Source of the DNA: an uncultured Poribacteria bacterium | GTDB taxonomy: Bacteria > Poribacteria > WGA-4E > WGA-3G | Assembly (NCBI GenBank): GCA_951813545.1 | Contig: OX638352.1 | Coordinates: 4,736,835 to 4,800,834, forward strand | DNA length: 64,000 nucleotides | Direction: 5' to 3' | Shown here: positions 4,159 to 47,893 of the stretch, piece by piece | Numbering within the stretch: the first letter of the stretch is position 1 | How the letters are laid out: each line of letters begins with the position of its first letter | The notes under the pieces: model-generated | What the model saw: the letters and a program-made list of their open reading frames with translations, nothing else | The model's database searches: none | What the model was told of the DNA's origin: nothing | Position numbers and translations under genes: made by a program

Positions 4159-5374
4159 TCCGCGACTCAGACAACCGCACCCGCCCCGTGAGGAGCTGCT
4201 GCATCATTCCCTGTTTGATGGAAATGGTTTTGTCCCGACGCTGCTCCAACGCCGCAATCTCGGCATCCATATCGGAAAGAATGCGAACGATAGCGTTCTG
4301 TTCTTTGACGCTCGGCATAAGGAAAGTAAAGTTTGCCATGTCCCGTCCATATAAGTGATAGACAGTTGTTCCTGATACAAGTTGCATCACCTGACTATGA
4401 TTTATCTTGATTACGTATGCGAGGAATGTTCCATTGAGGACATCAGCTGGAACGCGAATCACTAAGATATCGCCTCCAAGGATGACATTGGACATTGATA
4501 TACAACTTGCTGTTGCAAGACCATTAGGAGTTACATCCGATCCTGGCATCAGGACATCATTGGAGAGAGAAAGAAAAAACGTTCCTTCTCGATCAGTTCC
4601 ATGTAGAACTTTGGTGATACATTCGTCATAAGTTGTGAATAATTCTCCATAGTGGATACATCGCCTTTTCCCGTCAGGTGATAGGTCCGCTTTCGATAGA
4701 CCTGAGCCTTTAAAAAAAGATGAAATCTCGCCCAATCGCTTCACCTCCCACGCCCCGCTGAACCTAGGCAGGCGCGTCTGACCCGTCAGCAGTTGCTGCA
4801 TGGTGGCTTGCTTGATTGCCTGCTTCTTAGCGATGAGTGCGTCCAAGGCGTTGAGCAACCCATCCACATCCGACAATGCCTCGGCGATGGCGTGTTGTTC
4901 TGAAAGAGGAGGAAGAGGAATCTCAATATTCAGTAGGGTTCCCTTTGTAATTTCCTTAAATGTACTACCACTTGCAAGATCATTTAACTTCTCTTTTATA
5001 TATCTCAAATAGTAGGCGAGAAAGACATTTAATAGCGTCTCATGGCAAATAAAGTTAGCAAACCCTTGATTTGTCGCTATTGGAACGGTAGCGATTGCAG
5101 TTTCGCCAATTGTTGCTCGGCTAGTTAATAAAACTGTTCCCGCTGGTAGTAGTTTTGCAGCACTTTTACCTAATGCTTCTTCTGAAATATGTGTTGCTGT
5201 GTCATCAATGTACAAGGCGGAATCCAAAGCGGTAATGTCAGAAGGGATTGCCCAAGGAATATTGCCTCGAAAATATTTCACCACATCACGCTTTGGTGTT
5301 CCGCCTTTGGCAATCTCTGTTACCTCTCCTAATCTTACTACTTTCCAATGATCCTGTTTTGATTTTGCGCTCAT
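4136..5374 (-). CDS. hsdS: Type I restriction-modification specificity subunit (HsdS)
   Basis: 412 aa with two target-recognition-domain-like halves separated by conserved helical repeats (LLTGQTRLP / LLTGRVRL). It lies between hsdM and hsdR. Confidence 0.8.
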   Translation of the reverse strand: MSAKSKQDHWKVVRLGEVTEIAKGGTPKRDVVKYFRGNIPWAIPSDITALDSALYIDDTATHISEEALGKSAAKLLPAGTVLLTSRATIGETAIATVPIATNQGFANFICHETLLNVFLAYYLRYIKEKLNDLASGSTFKEITKGTLLNIEIPLPPLSEQHAIAEALSDVDGLLNALDALIAKKQAIKQATMQQLLTGQTRLPRFSGAWEVKRLGEISSFFKGSGLSKADLSPDGKRRCIHYGELFTTYDECITKVLHGTDREGTFFLSLSNDVLMPGSDVTPNGLATASCISMSNVILGGDILVIRVPADVLNGTFLAYVIKINHSQVMQLVSGTTVYHLYGRDMANFTFLMPSVKEQNAIVRILSDMDAEIAALEQRRDKTISIKQGMMQQLLTGRVRLSESRIDADDAD

Positions 5375-5429
5375 TAGAGTTCTTCTCCATTGGACTTTAT
5401 GGAAATATGAAAGCGGTAAATTCTTACAC

Positions 5430-7877
5430 TTAGATAGCCCCTATCTTTCTTATATGTTCCAGAACTTTCATGCTATATCCATCCACCTCACGCGACAACG
5501 CTGGCAATGGACTCGCGTAACGCTCCTCTAGTTCTTGGACACGCCCCGTCAGTTCCTGCGTCCCGCGTTGGACTTCACCCTCAATTGCCGATCCGATACT
5601 GGCGAGCCACTTATTCCCAACCACAAGTGTCTTGACTTCGTCCTCAGTAAGCGTCGCATAGCGAGCCAACACCTGTGTATCCAACGCGAGTTGGGCATCT
5701 TTGACTGCCTTGTCCGCTTTCGACTTCATCTCAAGCAGGGATAGGCAGTGTTCAAGGGCATCCTGTTCATCGTCGTTGTCTTGTGTCTCATGTAGCGTTG
5801 TGAGTGCCTTGAGTCGTGCTTTCACACTGCTGGCGGTAATGTTGCCGCTGTCGTTGGTAGCATCGGCGAGCAATCCGTTCTCGCTGGCGTGTTCCTCGAT
5901 GTATTCCTCTAAGGTTTGCACGGCAACTGCCTGTTTCGCTTGCAAGGCTTCAATCGCACCCTGCGCATCTACGAAATAGCGCGCGACGATCAACACCGGT
6001 GGAATCAGATCCATCTTGTATTTGCTTTTTTTGATAACGAGGTCGGGTGTCTCCTTCATCTGCCTATCCTGGATAACCTCACGCGGTTTTGCGGCTTCCA
6101 CCCATCCATCCGTGCCGATGAGATAAACATCGTCCTGCATGACCTCGTCCCAGTAGTCCATGAGTTTCTGATAGACATCATACCGATCAAGTAGAAGCAG
6201 ATCTCTGAAACGGGTGAGGAGGTCTTCCGATAACGTCTCAACGATGTTTCTGGGAACCGTGCCGACATCAATACCGAGCAAGCGTGGTTCGTGTGCCTCG
6301 CGCCATTCGGTAAAGACGGCATCGACGTGATGCTGGTAAACCTTGAATTCGGGATGCGTGAGGATCGTCGTTTTGACATGCTGTGTCTCCACGAGCGGAT
6401 CGCTGTATCCCGGTCTACCGTTGGCTGTGAACAGAGCGTTACGGAGTGTCGGGAAGACCGTCCAATATTTGTCAAGTGCGTCGATATCGGTGTCAGGGAT
6501 GCCTCCGTTGAGGTGTGCGCCGAGGTCGTGGAGATCTTCGGGTTCGCTCGCATCGATATAGCGCGGGATATTGAGATTATAGTCGTTGGCAGGATCGTCA
6601 ATCTCAGAGATGGGTACCATGCGCGAGTAGCACTGCAGTTCTGCGTGCGCATTGAAAACCGATACAATTTTGTGAATATCTTGGGCGCGGAGACGGTTTT
6701 TGTTGCCATCCTTGAGGAACCCTTTGCTGGCGTCTATCATGAAGATACCACTGCGGATGTGAGCGTTCTCTTTGTCAATCACGATAATACAGGCAGGGAT
6801 ACCCGTGCCGTAGAAGAGATTTGCAGGTAGACCGATGATGCCCTTGATATAACGGCGACGGATCAGTTCCCTGCGGATGTCTGCCTCTTTGTTGCCACGG
6901 AAGAGCACACCGTGTGGCAGAATGATCGCGCCTTTGCCTCTGCTTTTCAGGGACGCAACGAAGTGGAGTAAGAAGGCGTAATCGCCATTTTTCGCTGGCG
7001 GGGTACCGTATTCAAAGCGGTCGTAGGTGTCGTTACCGGGATCAGAGTCGAATCCGTTGGTCCAGGCTTTATCGGAGAATGGCGGGTTGGCGACAGCGAA
7101 ATCGAAGGTTTGGAGCCTGTCATCGTCCGTGAAAGCGGGTGCGACAAGCGTGTTACCGTGCTTTATGTCCGCACCGGCGTTGTCATGGAGGATCATGTTC
7201 ATGGACGCCAGGGCGAAGGTGGCATTGTCCTTTTCCTGTCCGTAAATACTCAACCCGTCCGGTGCTTCGTCGTCGGTTCGCAGTAGGAGTGAACCCGAAC
7301 CGCACGTCGGGTCATAGATCGTTTTATCCCGCCGGGTATCGGGACCGATACCGATCACTTTCGCCATGACGCGCGAGACTTCCGCGGGCGTGTAAAATTG
7401 TCCTTTGCTTTTGCCGGATTCAGTGGCGAAGTGGCGCATGAGGTATTCGTAAGCGTCACCTAAGAGGTCGTCGCCTTCCACTCGGTTGGCTCGGAAATCG
7501 AGGCTCTCAAAGATGGCGACCAGTTTCGAGAGCCGATCCTGCATTTCTTTGCCTCTGCCGAGTTTGCTGTCGTCGTTGAAATCAGCCTGATCGATGATGC
7601 CTTTGAGATCATTATTTTCTTCCGCGAGTCTCCCGATGATCTTGTTGATTTTGTCGCCGATCTCCTTGTCGCCGAGGCATGCAACCATATCCGCGAATCC
7701 GCCGCCTTCCGGAACAACGATTTCTGTGTAGTGATTATTGTCGGCTTTGTCGGAGACGTATTTCATGAAAAGGAGCGTTAGGATGTAGTCTTTGTATTGC
7801 GAGGCATCCATCCCGCCGCGGAGTTCGTCGCAGCTTTGCCACAGCGAAGCGTAAAGTTGCGATTTCTTTATTGCCAT
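5430..7877 (-). CDS. hsdM: Type I R-M N6-adenine DNA methyltransferase (HsdM), long form with a ~300-aa C-terminal extension
   Basis: N-terminal HsdM_N-like region, a GSGS SAM-binding motif and an NPPF catalytic motif (VANPPFSDKAW). At 815 aa it is longer than the ~500-aa canonical form. Confidence 0.88.
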   Translation of the reverse strand: MAIKKSQLYASLWQSCDELRGGMDASQYKDYILTLLFMKYVSDKADNNHYTEIVVPEGGGFADMVACLGDKEIGDKINKIIGRLAEENNDLKGIIDQADFNDDSKLGRGKEMQDRLSKLVAIFESLDFRANRVEGDDLLGDAYEYLMRHFATESGKSKGQFYTPAEVSRVMAKVIGIGPDTRRDKTIYDPTCGSGSLLLRTDDEAPDGLSIYGQEKDNATFALASMNMILHDNAGADIKHGNTLVAPAFTDDDRLQTFDFAVANPPFSDKAWTNGFDSDPGNDTYDRFEYGTPPAKNGDYAFLLHFVASLKSRGKGAIILPHGVLFRGNKEADIRRELIRRRYIKGIIGLPANLFYGTGIPACIIVIDKENAHIRSGIFMIDASKGFLKDGNKNRLRAQDIHKIVSVFNAHAELQCYSRMVPISEIDDPANDYNLNIPRYIDASEPEDLHDLGAHLNGGIPDTDIDALDKYWTVFPTLRNALFTANGRPGYSDPLVETQHVKTTILTHPEFKVYQHHVDAVFTEWREAHEPRLLGIDVGTVPRNIVETLSEDLLTRFRDLLLLDRYDVYQKLMDYWDEVMQDDVYLIGTDGWVEAAKPREVIQDRQMKETPDLVIKKSKYKMDLIPPVLIVARYFVDAQGAIEALQAKQAVAVQTLEEYIEEHASENGLLADATNDSGNITASSVKARLKALTTLHETQDNDDEQDALEHCLSLLEMKSKADKAVKDAQLALDTQVLARYATLTEDEVKTLVVGNKWLASIGSAIEGEVQRGTQELTGRVQELEERYASPLPALSREVDGYSMKVLEHIRKIGAI

Positions 7878-8107
7878 ACCTGAATCCTTTCTTGTGATAT
7901 TGACAGCAATATACCAAAGGCGGCCGATTAAGTCAACAGGTTCCTGCTTTATACCGGAGCCGTTCAGTTTTTAGTTTTTTGTCGGTTATACGGGGAACTA
8001 AGTTGAAATCGGAGTGTTTTGCTTGGGTGTTTCTGCGGATTTCCGCCCCTCTTACAGAACGCGGAGGGCGAGGTTCCAAACCTCGTCAGCGGCAAGCAAG
8101 TGCCGAG

Positions 8108-8144
8108 ATGAGAAAGAAATAGGGCGGGCACGGAACCCGCCCCT
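8108..8144 (-). terminator. Rho-independent terminator downstream of the KamA-like gene
   Basis: GC hairpin AGGGCGGGCACGGAACCCGCCCCT (8121..8144), followed on the minus strand by the T-rich tract ATTTCTTTCT. Confidence 0.5.
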
Positions 8145-8169
8145 ACAATAGATATAGATTTTCCTGAAT

Positions 8170-9225
8170 CTACCAATCCTCATCAAAGAACGGTGTGCTT
8201 GGGTAACTGTAGACGTTGCCCTCGTAATTGCGGAGTTGAATTTCATCATCGTCGAAGGTGACAACTGGATCGGGGATCAGTGCGATTTTTCCACCACCAC
8301 CGGGAGCATCGACGACATAATGCGGCACACCAAGCCCAGATATGTGTCCACGCAACGCTTCGACAATGTCTAATCCCGTCTTTACTGCTGTTCGGAAATG
8401 GTCGGTTCCTACGACGAGATCTGCTTGATAGATGTAGTAGGGCTTAACCCGGATTCGTAACAACCCTTTCATTAGTTCCACCATTACAGCGGGATCGTCG
8501 TTCACACCTTTCAGGAGGACGGTCTGATTACCGAGCGGTATGCCTGCATCGGCTAACATGCCACATGCCTTTTCAGTCTCAGGTGTGATTTCGCGTGGAT
8601 GGTTGAAGTGGGTGTTGATGTAAAAAGGGTGGTTCCGTTTCAAAATTGCACACAACTCTGGGGTAATGCGTTGGGGCAACGTTACTGGGACGCGTGAACC
8701 GATTCGGATGATTTCTAAATGTTCAATTGCCCGTAATCCGCCGACAATCATCTCGATTTTTTTATCCGTTAGCATGAGCGGATCGCCACCTGAGATAATG
8801 ACATCACGGATCTCTGAATGTGCTTGGATGTAGGCAAGCCCTCTCTCAATGTTATTTTCAGAGATCGAATGCGGGTCGCCAACTTTCCGTTTGCGGGTAC
8901 AGAAGCGACAATAGATTGGGCACATATAGTTGACATAAAAGAGTGCCCGATCTGGGTATCGGTGCGTAACGTTTGGTACTTCGCTATCGTCTTCTTCGTG
9001 GAGTGGGTCCTCTACACCGGTGCTAATCAACTCTTTTGGGTCGGGAACGACCTGTTTCCAAATCGCGTCGCCCGGTTTTTCTATGAGACTAAGATAATAC
9101 GGGTTGATGCGGATCGGAAATTCTTTATGAATGCGCCGCATCTCTTCTAAGTCAACATCAAATGCAGCGGCAAGTTTTTCTGGCGTGTTGACAGTATCTC
9201 TAACAAGACGTTTCCATTCTTCCAT
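8170..9225 (-). CDS. KamA-family radical SAM protein (lysine 2,3-aminomutase / EpmB-like)
   Basis: 351 aa. CxxxCxxC cluster CPIYCRFCTRKRKVG, typical of the KamA family. Confidence 0.75.
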   Translation of the reverse strand: MEEWKRLVRDTVNTPEKLAAAFDVDLEEMRRIHKEFPIRINPYYLSLIEKPGDAIWKQVVPDPKELISTGVEDPLHEEDDSEVPNVTHRYPDRALFYVNYMCPIYCRFCTRKRKVGDPHSISENNIERGLAYIQAHSEIRDVIISGGDPLMLTDKKIEMIVGGLRAIEHLEIIRIGSRVPVTLPQRITPELCAILKRNHPFYINTHFNHPREITPETEKACGMLADAGIPLGNQTVLLKGVNDDPAVMVELMKGLLRIRVKPYYIYQADLVVGTDHFRTAVKTGLDIVEALRGHISGLGVPHYVVDAPGGGGKIALIPDPVVTFDDDEIQLRNYEGNVYSYPSTPFFDEDW

Positions 9226-9318
9226 CGATTATGTCCATCCTTTCCAAATTTCCGCTGTTATGCTTGTTGCTCCGTAGGCGCGGTGCAACGTGAGAAACTC
9301 GTGAGCACTGCTTTGTTT

Positions 9319-9435
9319 TATAGTAAAGCCCATAATTATCTATCCATCAACCAAAGGGCGAGGATACAATCCTCGCCAGCGGTGGTGAGGGTTTTTTGTT
9401 TCCCAAATGTTAACTTATTTTCAGACTTTACTATA
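9319..9435. mobile_element. MITE-like ~117-bp element, copy A
   Basis: 11-bp terminal inverted repeats (TATAGTAAAG ... CTTTACTATA). Internal perfect 9-bp GC hairpin GGCGAGGAT-ACA-ATCCTCGCC followed by a T-run. It is near-identical to the copy at 44346..44463. Confidence 0.45.
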
Positions 9436-9466
9436 AGACTGTGGTGCGCGGAATTGATGAGATGTG

Positions 9467-10000
9467 CTACGGTGCTTCCGTGTAGTTCTCAATTGTTACC
9501 TTGTTCATTACATCACGTTCGCGTAGGGCATCTACTACATCCATTCCTTCAATAACCTTTCCGAATGTGGTATAGCTGCCGTTAAGATGTGCGTAAGGGC
9601 TTGGATCTGAACTGATACAGATATAAAACTGGCTTCCAGCGGAGTCAGGGTTCTGTGTCCGTGCCATAGCGACGACACCTTTTTCATGAGCTGGCATCTT
9701 TTCACGAAGGTCGGGGTCTTGGAATTCTCCCGGAATTGTCCATCCCGGTCCGCCTCTACCTGTCCCTTGTGGGTCGCCCCCTTGAATAACAAAACCGGGG
9801 ACATGCCGGTGAAAAATCACGCCATCATAATATCCGGTTTGGATCAACTGCGCGAAGTTTGCCACTGTGGCTGGAGCGGCTTCCGGATAAAGTTCAATAA
9901 TAATGTTTCCTTTTTCGGTTTCAATCGTTACATTGGGTAATTGATCAGTATTGCATGAGACAATCGCCGCGAAACACGCGCCTAATAAGCTAAATCGCAT
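9467..10000 (-). CDS. Peptidyl-prolyl cis-trans isomerase, cyclophilin type (PpiB-like), lipoprotein/secreted
   Basis: 177 aa. N-terminal signal with Cys (LLGACFAAIVSC). Cyclophilin motifs HRHVPGFVIQGGDP and FGKVIEGMDVV. Confidence 0.85.
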   Translation of the reverse strand: MRFSLLGACFAAIVSCNTDQLPNVTIETEKGNIIIELYPEAAPATVANFAQLIQTGYYDGVIFHRHVPGFVIQGGDPQGTGRGGPGWTIPGEFQDPDLREKMPAHEKGVVAMARTQNPDSAGSQFYICISSDPSPYAHLNGSYTTFGKVIEGMDVVDALRERDVMNKVTIENYTEAP

Positions 10001-44556: not shown

Positions 44557-45303
44557 CTAATATGTTGCTCTTCCACCGCTGACATCGTAGCACTGTCCCG
44601 TCACAAAGCTTGCCTCATCCGATGCCAAGAAATTCACGACCGCAGCAACTTCCTCTGGTTTCCCAACGCGTCCCAACGGAATCTTACCCACCATATAATC
44701 GATGGTTGATTGTGCCATACCTTCCAATATCGGTGTTTCGATGACCGCTGGAGACACTGCATTCACGCGGATGTTATAGTCCGTTACCTCTTTGGCGAGT
44801 GCCTTCGTTAGGCAGATAACCCCTGCTTTAGATACAGAATACGGGATGAGTGTCGGATTTCCCTCCTTGCCAGCGATTGAGGCGATGTTCACAATCCTGC
44901 CATAGTCCTGTGCGATCATGGGAGCGATCACCGCCTTACAACAGAGAAAAACACCTGTCAGGTTTACGCCTATCACGGTGTCCCAATCCGATTCTTCTAA
45001 GTCTGTCAATGGAAGCGTGCGTCCTGCAATTCCAGCGTTGTTGACGAGAATATCAACACGGCCGAAGGTGGAAATAACATTTTCGACAGCAGCGTTGACA
45101 TCGGTGGATACCGAAACATCTGCCTGAACGGGCAGTGCTTTGCGTCCCGTAGATTCAATCTCCTGCGCGACCGCTTCAGCTGCTGCTGCATTTAAATCCA
45201 TAATGGCGACATTCGCGCCTGCGTTCGCAAGTCTGATAGCAATCGCTTTACCGATACCCTGCCCCGCGCCTGTCACAATCGCAATTTTATCCGTTAGATT
45301 CAT
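44557..45303 (-). CDS. SDR-family oxidoreductase (FabG-like 3-oxoacyl reductase)
   Basis: Start refined to ATG 45303, with an AGGAGGG RBS 6 nt upstream. TGAGQGIGKAIAIRLANAGANV Rossmann motif. NNAG and catalytic SxnYxxxK (SKAGV) motifs. Confidence 0.85.
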   Translation of the reverse strand: MNLTDKIAIVTGAGQGIGKAIAIRLANAGANVAIMDLNAAAAEAVAQEIESTGRKALPVQADVSVSTDVNAAVENVISTFGRVDILVNNAGIAGRTLPLTDLEESDWDTVIGVNLTGVFLCCKAVIAPMIAQDYGRIVNIASIAGKEGNPTLIPYSVSKAGVICLTKALAKEVTDYNIRVNAVSPAVIETPILEGMAQSTIDYMVGKIPLGRVGKPEEVAAVVNFLASDEASFVTGQCYDVSGGRATY

Positions 45304-45859
45304 TAAAATCCCTCCTGAGTTCCAAAAAATCGTCCAGTTCAACGCCGAACGCGTCCGCGATCCGATTGATGTAGCTGAAAAAGCCAACGACCTCCACGAT
45401 AGCGAAGAGTGCTTCGTCGGTGAGTCCGTAGCTGCGAAGGTGTTCAAGGTCTGCTGGTGTAACAGTAGATGCTGCTTCTGTTACTTTAACGGCAAATTCA
45501 AGGATCGCTTTTGTGGTTTCGTCAATATCAGCCTTGTGAAAGTCAGTTACAATCTGGGCAATCTGCCCATCTGTGAGTTGTGCCCGCAACTCATCAGCAT
45601 GTGCGATTATTCAGTAGTGGCATTCGTTCACTTTCGAGACAACAGTTGCAATCATTTCACGCTGCATTCGGCTCAACGGGGAGTCCTCGTCAAACATTAT
45701 CGCTATGTAGAGTTCAATGAAAGGACGCATGCTTTTTGGTCGTACGCTGAGGAGTCTGACGATATTGTAAACTTGTCCCGCCCGCGCAATTGCCGCGTCG
45801 TATTCTTCTTTCACGATACCGGTTGCTTCGGCTTCGTCTACAGTGCGAATCCACGCCAT
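45287..45859 (-). CDS. AhpD/carboxymuconolactone-decarboxylase-family peroxidase-related protein with an in-frame TGA (candidate selenocysteine) at 45611..45613
   Basis: The ORF-track ORFs 45611..45859 and 45287..45589 are in the same frame and separated only by TGA. Read-through gives SKVNECHY-[TGA]-IIAHADE, which matches the AhpD catalytic N-x-C-x-x-C-x-x-x-H motif with TGA in place of the second Cys. Without read-through, the downstream half needs a TTG start and has no RBS. Confidence 0.6.
45571..45597 (-). other. Candidate bacterial SECIS-like hairpin 13 nt downstream of the in-frame UGA
   Basis: On the mRNA, CUGAUGAGUUG-CGGGCA-CAACUCACAG forms a 10-bp stem with a single U bulge and a 6-nt G-rich apical loop. 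Confidence 0.35.
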
Positions 45860-45862
45860 TTT

Positions 45863-47092
45863 TTACTCTCCAATTACGACACCGTATTCACCGACAACTG
45901 CGCCTTTGTGTCCGGTCTGGTAGTGTAGGTGTCTTTCACCGACGATAGGTTGTGTGCTTTGTACTTCTACTGTGCCGCGAACTTTCCCCATCGCTCCTTC
46001 ATCCATATCAACACAGCAGAACGGTTTAATTTGGCGATGCACTTGCTGCTTAATGTCCCCTTGTCGGTTGCGGACGATAACGTTGACAAAAGCATCTGCT
46101 TCTCCAACGTTAAGAAATCGGAACCAGTCCCAGGCACCCCCGGCAATTTCAGGGAAAAAGAGCCGGAGCCCAACTTGTCCTCCCTCAACCGATGCACCGG
46201 GTAGATCGATAATGGCTGTCCCACTATGCATGTGTCGTTCCGCGACAACCGGTTGATCGCTGCGTACCTCTACGGAGGATTTCACTTTAATGTCATCCAT
46301 AGGTGGTGTCCAGCACTCAAAAGGTCTCAGTTGATCGCGTTTTTTTGTCCACGTTGCTTGCGCATTGTCATCTTTACGTGCGATCATCGTTACTTCTGCA
46401 TCTTCTCTCCCGACGTTGACGATTACAACCCAATCTTGCCATGCAGGTCCGACTTCTGGCAAAAAGAGTGTGCGCGGCGCATCCGAAATCAACTGCCCAA
46501 ATTGCCCAACGGATGTCTTCCCTCCCTGATAGTGGAGATGGCGCTCTCCCACAATCGGTTGTGAACTTTGCATCTCAACCGTGCCGGTGACGTTCCCCAT
46601 AACACCTTCGTTGAGATCCCAACAGCAGAGGGGCTCAATAACGTGGTGTCGTTGCCTGATTACATCGCCGTTTCTGTTTCGGACGGTAATGTTGACGTGC
46701 GCATCCGCTTCACCGACGTTTAGGACCCGAAACCAATCGTGGGCACCGGAGACCAGTTCCGGAAAGAAGAGCCGCTGCCCGACTGTTCCATATTCCTCCG
46801 CTGCACCAATGAAATCAAGCACGTTCGTGTCCTTGTGCATGTGCCGTTCCGCCACAATCGGTTGATCTGCAGTGAACTGCATTGAGGAGTTCTCTTTAAT
46901 CTCTTCGACGTTCGGTATCCAGGACTCGAAGGAGCTTATTGTTTTCTCCGCAGACCAAGTCGGTTGTCCGTTACGGGCATGTCTCGCTATCGCAGTTACA
47001 CGGGTATCTTCAGGTCCCACATTCGTAACTTGGACCCAGTCTTGCCATTGGGGTCCCACTTCTGGAAAATAAAGGGTTGTTGCTCCTGGCAT
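45863..47092 (-). CDS. Hypothetical protein made of four tandem ~100-aa repeats of an unrecognised domain
   Basis: Each repeat carries LF(F/L)PE(V/L/I)..G..DW..(V/F)LNVGE.DA.V, (E/K)P(L/F)(C/E)C(W/V)D and Q(P)(I/V)(V)(G/A)ERH(L/M)H motifs. No signal peptide. 4-bp gap to the downstream AhpD-like gene. Confidence 0.5.
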   Translation of the reverse strand: MPGATTLYFPEVGPQWQDWVQVTNVGPEDTRVTAIARHARNGQPTWSAEKTISSFESWIPNVEEIKENSSMQFTADQPIVAERHMHKDTNVLDFIGAAEEYGTVGQRLFFPELVSGAHDWFRVLNVGEADAHVNITVRNRNGDVIRQRHHVIEPLCCWDLNEGVMGNVTGTVEMQSSQPIVGERHLHYQGGKTSVGQFGQLISDAPRTLFLPEVGPAWQDWVVIVNVGREDAEVTMIARKDDNAQATWTKKRDQLRPFECWTPPMDDIKVKSSVEVRSDQPVVAERHMHSGTAIIDLPGASVEGGQVGLRLFFPEIAGGAWDWFRFLNVGEADAFVNVIVRNRQGDIKQQVHRQIKPFCCVDMDEGAMGKVRGTVEVQSTQPIVGERHLHYQTGHKGAVVGEYGVVIGE

Positions 47093-47299: not shown

Positions 47300-47580
47300 T
47301 GGTTTGGGGATCCCTTCTACAGAAGGGATCGGGAATTGGAGTTCCTTCCTACAGAAGAGTCGGGAATCGGAGTTCCCTCCTACAGAAGAGTCGGGAATCG
47401 GAGTTCCCTCCTACAGAAGGGATCGGGAATTGGAGTTCCTTCCTACAGAAGAGTCGGGAATCGGAGTTCCCTCCTACAGAAGAGTCGGGAATCGGAGTTC
47501 CTTCCTACAGAAGAGTCGGGAATCGGAGTTCCCTCCTACAGAAGAGTCGGGAATCGGAGTTCCCTCCTACAGAAGAGATG
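47300..47580. repeat. Tandem array of about nine 31-bp repeats in a divergent promoter region
   Basis: Unit GGGAATCGGAGTTCCCTCCTACAGAAGAGTC, with variants GGGAATTGGAGTTCCTTCCTACAGAAGGGATC. Each unit has an internal dyad GGGAA-N6-TTCCC. A solo copy lies at 37241..37266. Confidence 0.85.
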
Positions 47581-47605: not shown

Positions 47606-47893
47606 ATGGCTGCGAAAAAACTTTCAGACGCTGAAATTCAGGAAAACCTTGAACAACTCAACGGTTGGACAGTGGAAGACGGTAAACTGCACAAGGAATA
47701 TCAGTTTGACACCTTTGTTACAGCCTTCGGTTTTATGACACAACTCGCCCTAATCGCGGAATCCATGAATCACCACCCCGAATGGTTTAACGTCTATAAC
47801 CGTGTGACAATTGATTTGATGACACACGATGCAGGTGGCATCAGTGAATTGGATTTTCAATGGGCAAAGCACGCGGATTCGATTAGTGGATAA
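47606..47893 (+). CDS. Pterin-4a-carbinolamine dehydratase (PCD/DCoH)
   Basis: 95 aa. EYQFDTFVTAFGFMTQLALIAESMNHHPEW is the classical PCD core. Confidence 0.85.
   Translation: MAAKKLSDAEIQENLEQLNGWTVEDGKLHKEYQFDTFVTAFGFMTQLALIAESMNHHPEWFNVYNRVTIDLMTHDAGGISELDFQWAKHADSISG

Follow-up and report, generated by a model that had tools for sequence, protein, structure and literature searches.

An AhpD-like gene split by an in-frame UGA codon in Candidatus Poribacteria: a predicted selenoprotein of the CxxU family

A stretch of 64,000 nucleotides from an uncultured Poribacteria bacterium (GCA_951813545.1, contig OX638352.1, positions 4,736,835 to 4,800,834), referred to here in its whole length as the window, carries on its minus strand an AhpD-like gene whose frame is interrupted by one in-frame TGA. 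We consider it highly probable (about 0.93) that 45287..45859 is one gene encoding a 190-residue thiol-selenol oxidoreductase of the AhpD-like/CMD fold, belonging to the COG2128 (YciW) CxxU family, in which UGA83 is predicted to be decoded as selenocysteine (Sec) by means of a downstream hairpin. The locus is one translated unit, purifying and compensatory selection act on its TGA and its hairpin, the interrupting codon aligns to a redox Cys, and the genes of the Sec machinery are linked to one of its orthologs. In fact, the gene represents a well-described selenoprotein family, of which it is a typical member that has been mis-annotated, and Sec machinery has already been reported for the phylum. 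Its main features are the following:

45287..45859, minus strand: AhpD-like (TIGR01926 / COG2128-type) predicted selenoprotein gene, 190 codons followed by TAA (from sequence, frame and profile matches)
45611..45613, minus strand: in-frame UGA, codon 83, predicted Sec codon at the second position of the C80-H-Y-U83 redox motif (from ortholog conservation and Cys homologs)
45599..45658, minus strand: active-site segment, with E68 at 45658..45656, C80 at 45622..45620, U83 at 45613..45611 and H87 at 45601..45599
45587..45589, minus strand: TTG used by the gene caller as the 'start' of a C-terminal open reading frame (ORF); it is Leu91 and lies within the 5' arm of the hairpin (from the ORF list and ortholog codons)
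45866..45871, minus strand: GGAGAG, Shine-Dalgarno-like, 6 nt 5' of the ATG at 45859 and overlapping the final codons of the upstream gene (from the sequence alone)

Reading frame, protein family and conservation of the UGA codon

The initial annotation had described two minus-strand ORFs in the same frame with only a TGA between them, and the geometry re-derived from the sequence is the same: the frame starts with the ATG at 45859, runs for 82 codons to the TGA (45613..45611) and continues for 107 codons to a TAA (45289..45287). The read-through protein, ...SKVNECHY-U-IIAHADELRAQLTDGQ... (also written ...ATVVSKVNECHY-U-IIAHADELRAQLT...), matches around U the one given there. The ORF lister reported the second part as a TTG-initiated ORF (45287..45589), and the remark that the locus is mis-called as two ORFs applies equally to public gene calls, since every public assembly examined has the gene split into products of 82 and 100/106 amino acids (aa).

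Profile searches of the 190-aa product were performed with Cys placed at the TGA. The protein scored 156 bits against TIGR01926 'peroxidase-related enzyme' (cutoff 81.8), covering profile positions 1-174 of 178, and 42.2 bits against Pfam CMD (PF02627; cutoff 23). It aligns with AhpD-like and Cys-homolog families as a full-length TIGR01926/CMD-fold protein, in which the TGA column corresponds to the second Cys of the C-x-x-C-x3-H motif. The nearest structures in the PDB (2pfx, 2prr, 3c1l, 2oyo and 6k40) were matched over about 150-160 residues with E = 1e-27 to 1e-21, and in both of the alignments displayed the TGA column holds a Cys, NKCFYCLVAH in 2pfx and NQCLYCVVAH in 2prr. Locus L075 has a Cys at this column as well (SKVNECHYCVAHH).

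Protein databases hold this family largely in pieces. The closest relatives, at 66-81% identity, consist without exception of C-terminal fragments about 106 aa long, two remoter ones are N-terminal fragments ending in ...NDCHY and ...NDCFY, and the full-length relatives, at 26-40% identity, carry C-x-Y/F-C-x3-H (P0009-P0015, P0017 and P0020 have C-x-Y/F-C). When the 82-aa N-terminal half was used as the query of a HMMER search, 743 cluster representatives (50% identity) were retrieved at E <= 1e-3; among the best 150 of these, which were inspected, 108 stop exactly after E-x11-C-x-x, 19 go on with Cys and 3 with Trp. The fact that 108 of the 150 nearest representatives end at this very codon places the window gene in a large, mostly Sec-using clade that is systematically truncated in databases. 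Three full-length relatives (P0271, P0300 and P0372) show Trp at the Sec position (C-x-x-W-x3-H); such forms might be cases of TGA read as Trp under another code table, that is, mis-translated selenoproteins.

Sixty-nine loci emerged from a scan for orthologs in which each GTDB species was represented by one genome, and all of them were from Candidatus Poribacteria except one alphaproteobacterial Cys homolog. The distinct orthologous sequences number 61, with 60-96% protein identity, and represent about 64 Poribacteria species and one Gaiellaceae-like genome (L003). Every locus holding the motif has TGA at this position (61/61); neither TAA nor TAG nor any sense codon occurs there, and the frame is open for at least 83 codons on the 5' side and for about 100-110 codons on the 3' side. 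The possibility, raised with the first description, that orthologs would lack a conserved Cys at the TGA is not borne out, the column being the redox Cys in the Cys homologs. Beyond the TGA, the His at +4 is invariant in the 61 sequences, written as CAT in 21 and CAC in 40; Ala+3 is encoded by GCA (28), GCG (23) or GCC (1), Ala+5 by all four GCN codons, and Asp+6 by GAT (47) or GAC (10). This synonymous wobble in the seven codons between the TGA and the TTG indicates that those codons are translated. Taken together, the conservation of the TGA, the open flanks and the coding constraint effectively exclude both a pseudogene and the production of two polypeptides.

Were the TGA a genuine stop, the locus would yield polypeptides of 82 and about 100 aa, either forming a split AhpD-like assembly or having separate roles. 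This would agree with the gene callers, which annotate two ORFs in every public assembly examined, and with the presence of a TTG 21 nt downstream of the TGA. Termination, however, would leave the product without its second redox residue and interrupt the catalytic helix, and the seven codons that precede the TTG, including that of the invariant catalytic His, are under protein-coding constraint. The supposed start has no Shine-Dalgarno motif, as had been pointed out from the start, and is replaced by CTG or CTC in five species. Furthermore, TAA and TAG never occur at the site (0/61), although they are the stop codons of 36 of the 40 window ORFs of 250 aa or more (TAA 18, TAG 18, TGA 4). We regard two separate polypeptides as very improbable.

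An AhpD-like gene killed by a nonsense mutation would likewise present a single in-frame stop in an otherwise intact sequence, and real decay of this gene is found in a few Poribacteria (L073, L074 and L076). Nevertheless, where decay is real, it takes the form of large deletions and start-codon loss instead of a lone TGA. Here the same TGA is kept among orthologs with as little as 60% protein identity, and also in a different phylum, while the two halves remain intact and under purifying selection, so that a pseudogene is hardly credible.

The hairpin downstream of the UGA codon

On the 3' side of the UGA the mRNA contains a stem-loop, of which a core conserved among orthologs can be distinguished from a longer form present in the window:

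45575..45592, minus strand: conserved core, putative bacterial selenocysteine insertion sequence (SECIS), formed by GAGUUG (45592..45587), the loop CGGGCA (45586..45581) and CAACUC (45580..45575); it starts 18 nt 3' of the UGA
45571..45597, minus strand: extended hairpin of 10 bp with a bulged A at 45594; it is included in the minimum free energy (MFE) fold of the window, and its outer 3 bp are window-specific

The extended hairpin, CUGAUGAGUUG-CGGGCA-CAACUCACAG, starts 13 nt after the UGA and, in the window sequence, has a folding energy of -19.5 kcal/mol (z = -2.56 versus dinucleotide shuffles). The bulged 10-bp stem with a G-rich loop proposed in the initial annotation is therefore present in the window, but what is conserved is a stem of 6 bp, often 7 bp, with a 6-nt loop, 18 nt from the UGA. 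In fact, pair 21:45 is unpaired in 53 of the 61 sequences, the lower 3 bp and the bulge being specific to the window, and RNAalifold retains only the inner six pairs.

The evidence for selection on this structure comes from a gap-free alignment (A1) of the 61 distinct segments, each of 60 nt. With the 10-pair structure imposed, 87% of the cells are paired, in comparison with 26-32% after a shift of the 3' partners by 1-3 columns. Changes on both sides of a pair occur in 29 cells, against 9.0 +/- 2.3 in column shuffles, and none of 500 shuffles reaches 29. Two pairs illustrate this behaviour: pair 27:40 is GC in 39 sequences, AU in 12, GU in 5, CG in 4 and UG in 1, and pair 28:39 is UA in 55, CG in 5 and UG in 1, neither being broken in any sequence. 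The switch at 28:39 is synonymous on both sides, Leu TTG to CTG together with Gln CAA to CAG, while at 27:40 a replacement of Leu by Phe or Val accompanies either a synonymous Glu change or a change of Glu to Asp. The inner stem is thus conserved with compensatory changes, and the concern that the hairpin might be absent from relatives is not supported.

The loop is 6 nt long and follows C-G-[G/U]-G-N-N, with columns C31, G32 and G34 invariant. Codon +10 is always GNN, the encoded residue varying among A, D, E, V and G; an invariant G as the fourth base of the loop, in spite of the varying residue, points to a constraint at the RNA level. According to their published description, bacterial SECIS elements are stem-loops located just 3' of the UGA whose small apical loop contains guanosine (PMC1088965). 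Both the minus-strand fold of the window, where the hairpin is part of the MFE structure and shows a small G-containing apical loop, and the conserved hairpin fit this worded description, which makes the element a candidate SECIS.

Selenocysteine machinery and possible alternative decoding of UGA83

An association of the gene with Sec machinery was observed outside Poribacteria, in the Gaiellaceae-like actinobacterium L003 (GCA_038324115.1), whose ortholog is 57% identical and has the same TGA. In this genome the gene is embedded in a compact island (coordinates on JBBQHQ010000029.1):

4772..9888: Sec island, with tRNA-Sec, the AhpD-like CxxU gene, a cupin gene, selB and selA within about 5 kb
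4772..4864, minus strand: tRNA-Sec, anticodon TCA
6001 to about 6640, plus strand: AhpD-like CxxU gene, 1.1 kb downstream of the tRNA-Sec and about 0.65 kb from the convergent selB/selA
6977..8611, minus strand: selB
8596..9888, minus strand: selA

The SelA of L003 is 82-86% identical to proteins named by their sources as Gaiellaceae SelA. When it was used as a bait, the 120 matches listed all had at least 81% identity and those with names were all from Gaiellaceae or Actinobacteria, a result that is uninformative on Poribacteria. For the latter phylum, SelA/SelB/SelD counts have been published (Slaby et al. 2017, Table S4), namely 2/1/1 in WGA-3G, 2/1/1 in bin70 and 4/1/2 in bin44, both bins being Candidatus Poribacteria (PMC5649159), and a 2026 survey reported Sec-containing group 4 hydrogenases from Poribacteria (PMC13582414).

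Some observations weigh against decoding of UGA83 as Sec. No tRNA-Sec, selA, selB or selD was found in the 64-kb window or in about 600 kb of fetched poribacterial flanks: ARAGORN found no tRNA in the window, and tblastn with the SelA and SelB of L003 against the window and all of the fetched loci gave no matches. WGA-3G, the sole Poribacteria genome having both published machinery counts and an examined locus, possesses only a deleted remnant of the gene; since this copy is internally deleted, the link between machinery and gene holds only at the level of the phylum. As for the hairpin, its single-sequence folding energy is undistinguished in most orthologs (z from -2.6 to +0.2), its homologous counterpart is not the MFE structure in L003, one pair is broken in L065, and the window gave no Rfam family match at gathering thresholds. 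Because folding energy does not discriminate in most orthologs, the weight is placed here on conservation and covariation.

UGA83 might also be recoded in another way, through near-cognate read-through to Trp or Cys or through a lineage-wide reassignment of UGA, the hairpin then being a mere stimulator of read-through. Sec machinery was not found in the part of the source genome covered by the window, TGA is a rare stop (4 of the 40 window ORFs of at least 250 aa) and three database relatives are translated with W at the Sec position, all of which would be in line with such a mechanism. Those four long ORFs, on the other hand, show that TGA still functions as a stop in the source genome, so that there is no wholesale reassignment, and the W forms could be artefacts of the translation table. 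Moreover, the codon aligns to a redox-active Cys, as in a classic Sec/Cys pair, the L003 ortholog is embedded in a tRNA-Sec/selB/selA island, and SelA, SelB and SelD are reported for Poribacteria (PMC5649159). Recoding to a residue other than Sec therefore appears improbable, and insertion of Sec is the reading that we adopt. Other TGA-split genes offer no convincing in-genome evidence on Sec use: a mechanical scan of the window (at least 60 codons per side) gave 19 in-frame, TGA-separated ORF pairs, and the other 18 are, as read from the ORF map, antisense to or out of frame with long ORFs.

The main value of the finding lies in annotation, since, in a large protein collection, the sequences of at least 108 clusters of close relatives (50% identity) likewise break off at this codon. 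Such split or truncated gene calls cause the selenoproteins of sponge symbionts to be under-counted and leave the protein models without their redox active site. An enrichment of SelA and SelB in sponge symbionts had been reported earlier, to which the gene now adds a concrete predicted selenoprotein, and the natural alignment of 61 sequences of a putative bacterial SECIS, with its compensatory changes, could help to refine SECIS models. Existing knowledge of Sec decoding and of AhpD-like proteins is left unchanged.

Gene neighbourhood, proposed mechanism and known relatives

Two genes on the same strand closely flank the AhpD-like gene:

45863..47092, minus strand: upstream, translationally coupled gene of 409 aa with four tandem TM1070-like beta-sandwich domains (from an AlphaFold model and synteny)
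44557..45303, minus strand: downstream gene of 248 aa for an SDR-family oxidoreductase, FabG-like and glucose 1-dehydrogenase-like (adh_short_C2, E = 2e-69)

The stop codon of the 409-aa gene (45865..45863) lies 3 nt before the ATG at 45859, and the ATG of the SDR gene at 45303, preceded by AGGAGGG at 45316..45310, overlaps the 3' end of the AhpD-like gene by 17 nt. No Pfam or NCBIfam family matches the 409-aa protein. Its AlphaFold model has a predicted local distance difference test (pLDDT) score of 93.6, and each domain resembles Thermotoga maritima TM1070 (PDB 1nc7, probability 1.0), a protein deposited under a name that says nothing about its function. Every repeat carries invariant E-R-H and W-x-D-W motifs, and the family is widespread in Poribacteria, where the named copies are called 'hypothetical protein'.

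The order 409-aa gene, AhpD-like gene (U form) and SDR gene is shared by the loci of sponge-associated Poribacteria with examined flanks. It was not found around L003, the one other U form, and the distant homologs of the 409-aa protein that were examined (41-46% identity) are not adjacent to AhpD-like genes. In L073, L074 and L076, furthermore, the AhpD-like gene is a short remnant between intact 409-aa and SDR genes (76% and 91-93% identity, respectively), which indicates a lineage-specific loss of the selenoprotein gene:

L073, 4001..4192 (ASZN01000074.1, WGA-3G): gene remnant with an internal deletion and an in-frame stop
L074, 4001..4099 (OZ244821.1): gene remnant with an internal deletion, loss of the start codon and an in-frame stop
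L076, 4001..4075: gene remnant with an internal deletion and an in-frame stop

The tight coupling to an upstream Cys-motif repeat protein and a downstream SDR, claimed in the initial annotation, thus holds within the sponge-associated clade but only there, and the neighbours persist without the gene. Since distant homologs are unlinked and the neighbours outlast the loss of the gene, the coupling is clade-specific and dispensable. It is conceivable, though doubtful, that in sponge-associated Poribacteria the three genes constitute a translationally coupled redox module, made of a cytoplasmic beta-sandwich protein, the Sec-containing AhpD-like protein and the SDR, acting on a substrate of sponge life; the selenoenzyme would then be an optional, selenium-dependent accessory, as some lineages have deleted its gene and kept both partners.

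The start of this operon (47092, minus strand) is separated from a divergent Pterin_4a gene (47606..47893, plus strand) by an intergenic region of 513 bp, within which a 31-nt tandem repeat occupies 47311..47577 (8.5 copies, 93% matches; alternatively, a 94-nt unit repeated 2.9 times). The repeat yields spurious repeat-peptide ORFs in the ORF list; a CRISPR-like nature was considered and rejected, the array having no spacers.

We infer how Sec insertion, SelB binding and the ensuing chemistry could proceed, as well as the involvement of a physiological substrate and a reductant. When the ribosome arrives at UGA83, SelB with GTP and Sec-tRNA(Sec) would be recruited by the hairpin starting 18 nt downstream, Sec would be inserted and translation would proceed to the TAA at 45287. 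Sec83 would occupy the exposed, attacking position of the AhpD C-x-x-C motif, which is the usual pattern of Sec/Cys pairs, and its selenolate may attack the oxidised substrate, with Glu68 and His87 serving as a putative proton relay. Cys80 would then resolve the intermediate as a selenenylsulfide, after which a reductant would regenerate the enzyme. Reduction of peroxides or of a peroxiredoxin is suggested as the activity only by analogy with AhpD.

Among the known systems, Mycobacterium tuberculosis AhpD provides the reference for the active site. Its proton relay consists of Glu118, Cys130, Cys133 and His137 (PMC3141380), and E68, C80, U83 and H87 of the window protein reproduce its spacing exactly (+12/+15/+19), with Sec in place of Cys133. 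In AhpD it is this second, exposed Cys that forms the mixed disulfide with AhpC, Cys130 being partly buried (PMC6626918), which puts Sec83 at the attacking and not at the resolving position; the initial annotation was therefore right in placing the TGA at the second Cys of the AhpD CxxC motif, but the Cys replaced is the attacking one rather than, as stated there, the resolving one. The two proteins also differ in that the window protein lies outside the canonical AhpD subfamily TIGR00777 (17.3 bits, cutoff 191.95), has its motif in the N-terminal half of a 190-aa protein and is encoded by a gene that no ahpC or lipoamide-system genes adjoin; ahpC is likewise missing among the called genes of the orthologous loci.

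The structural relatives 2pfx, 2prr, 3c1l and 2oyo ('uncharacterized peroxidase-related protein') and 6k40 (AhpD) share the fold, and in 2pfx and 2prr the motif C-x-Y-C-x-x-A/H-H aligns with C80..H87. Unlike the window protein, 2pfx and 2prr are Cys forms, and four of the five structures were deposited as uncharacterized or putative. A further relative is NF041238 ('AhpD_rel_CFYUT alkylhydroperoxidase-related (seleno)protein'), which has an AhpD-type domain and Sec at the second position of its motif (C-F-Y-U-T); the window protein is not a member, scoring 81.3 bits against a cutoff of 175 over positions 151-341 of 357.

The closest correspondence is with the family 'AhpD-like (COG2128/YciW), CxxU' (also 'AhpD-like 1'), an established prokaryotic selenoprotein family first found in Sargasso Sea data (PMC1088965, PMC2398784, PMC9312934) and browsable in BSepDB (PMC13326102). 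It is among the most abundant selenoprotein families of the Global Ocean Sampling (GOS) data, with 299 Sec genes in comparison with 902 Cys homologs (PMC2398784, PMC9312934), and the earlier statement that AhpD-like selenoproteins are a known family thus agrees with the literature. The window protein resembles this family in its TIGR01926/CMD fold, in a CxxU motif with Sec as the second residue, in the existence of Cys homologs and in its marine origin, and the SECIS-like hairpin, with a small G-containing apical loop just 3' of the UGA, is a further trait in common. There is no fundamental difference between the two; what distinguishes the window copy is its origin from Candidatus Poribacteria, which are sponge symbionts, and its three-gene arrangement with the protein of four beta-sandwich domains and the SDR.

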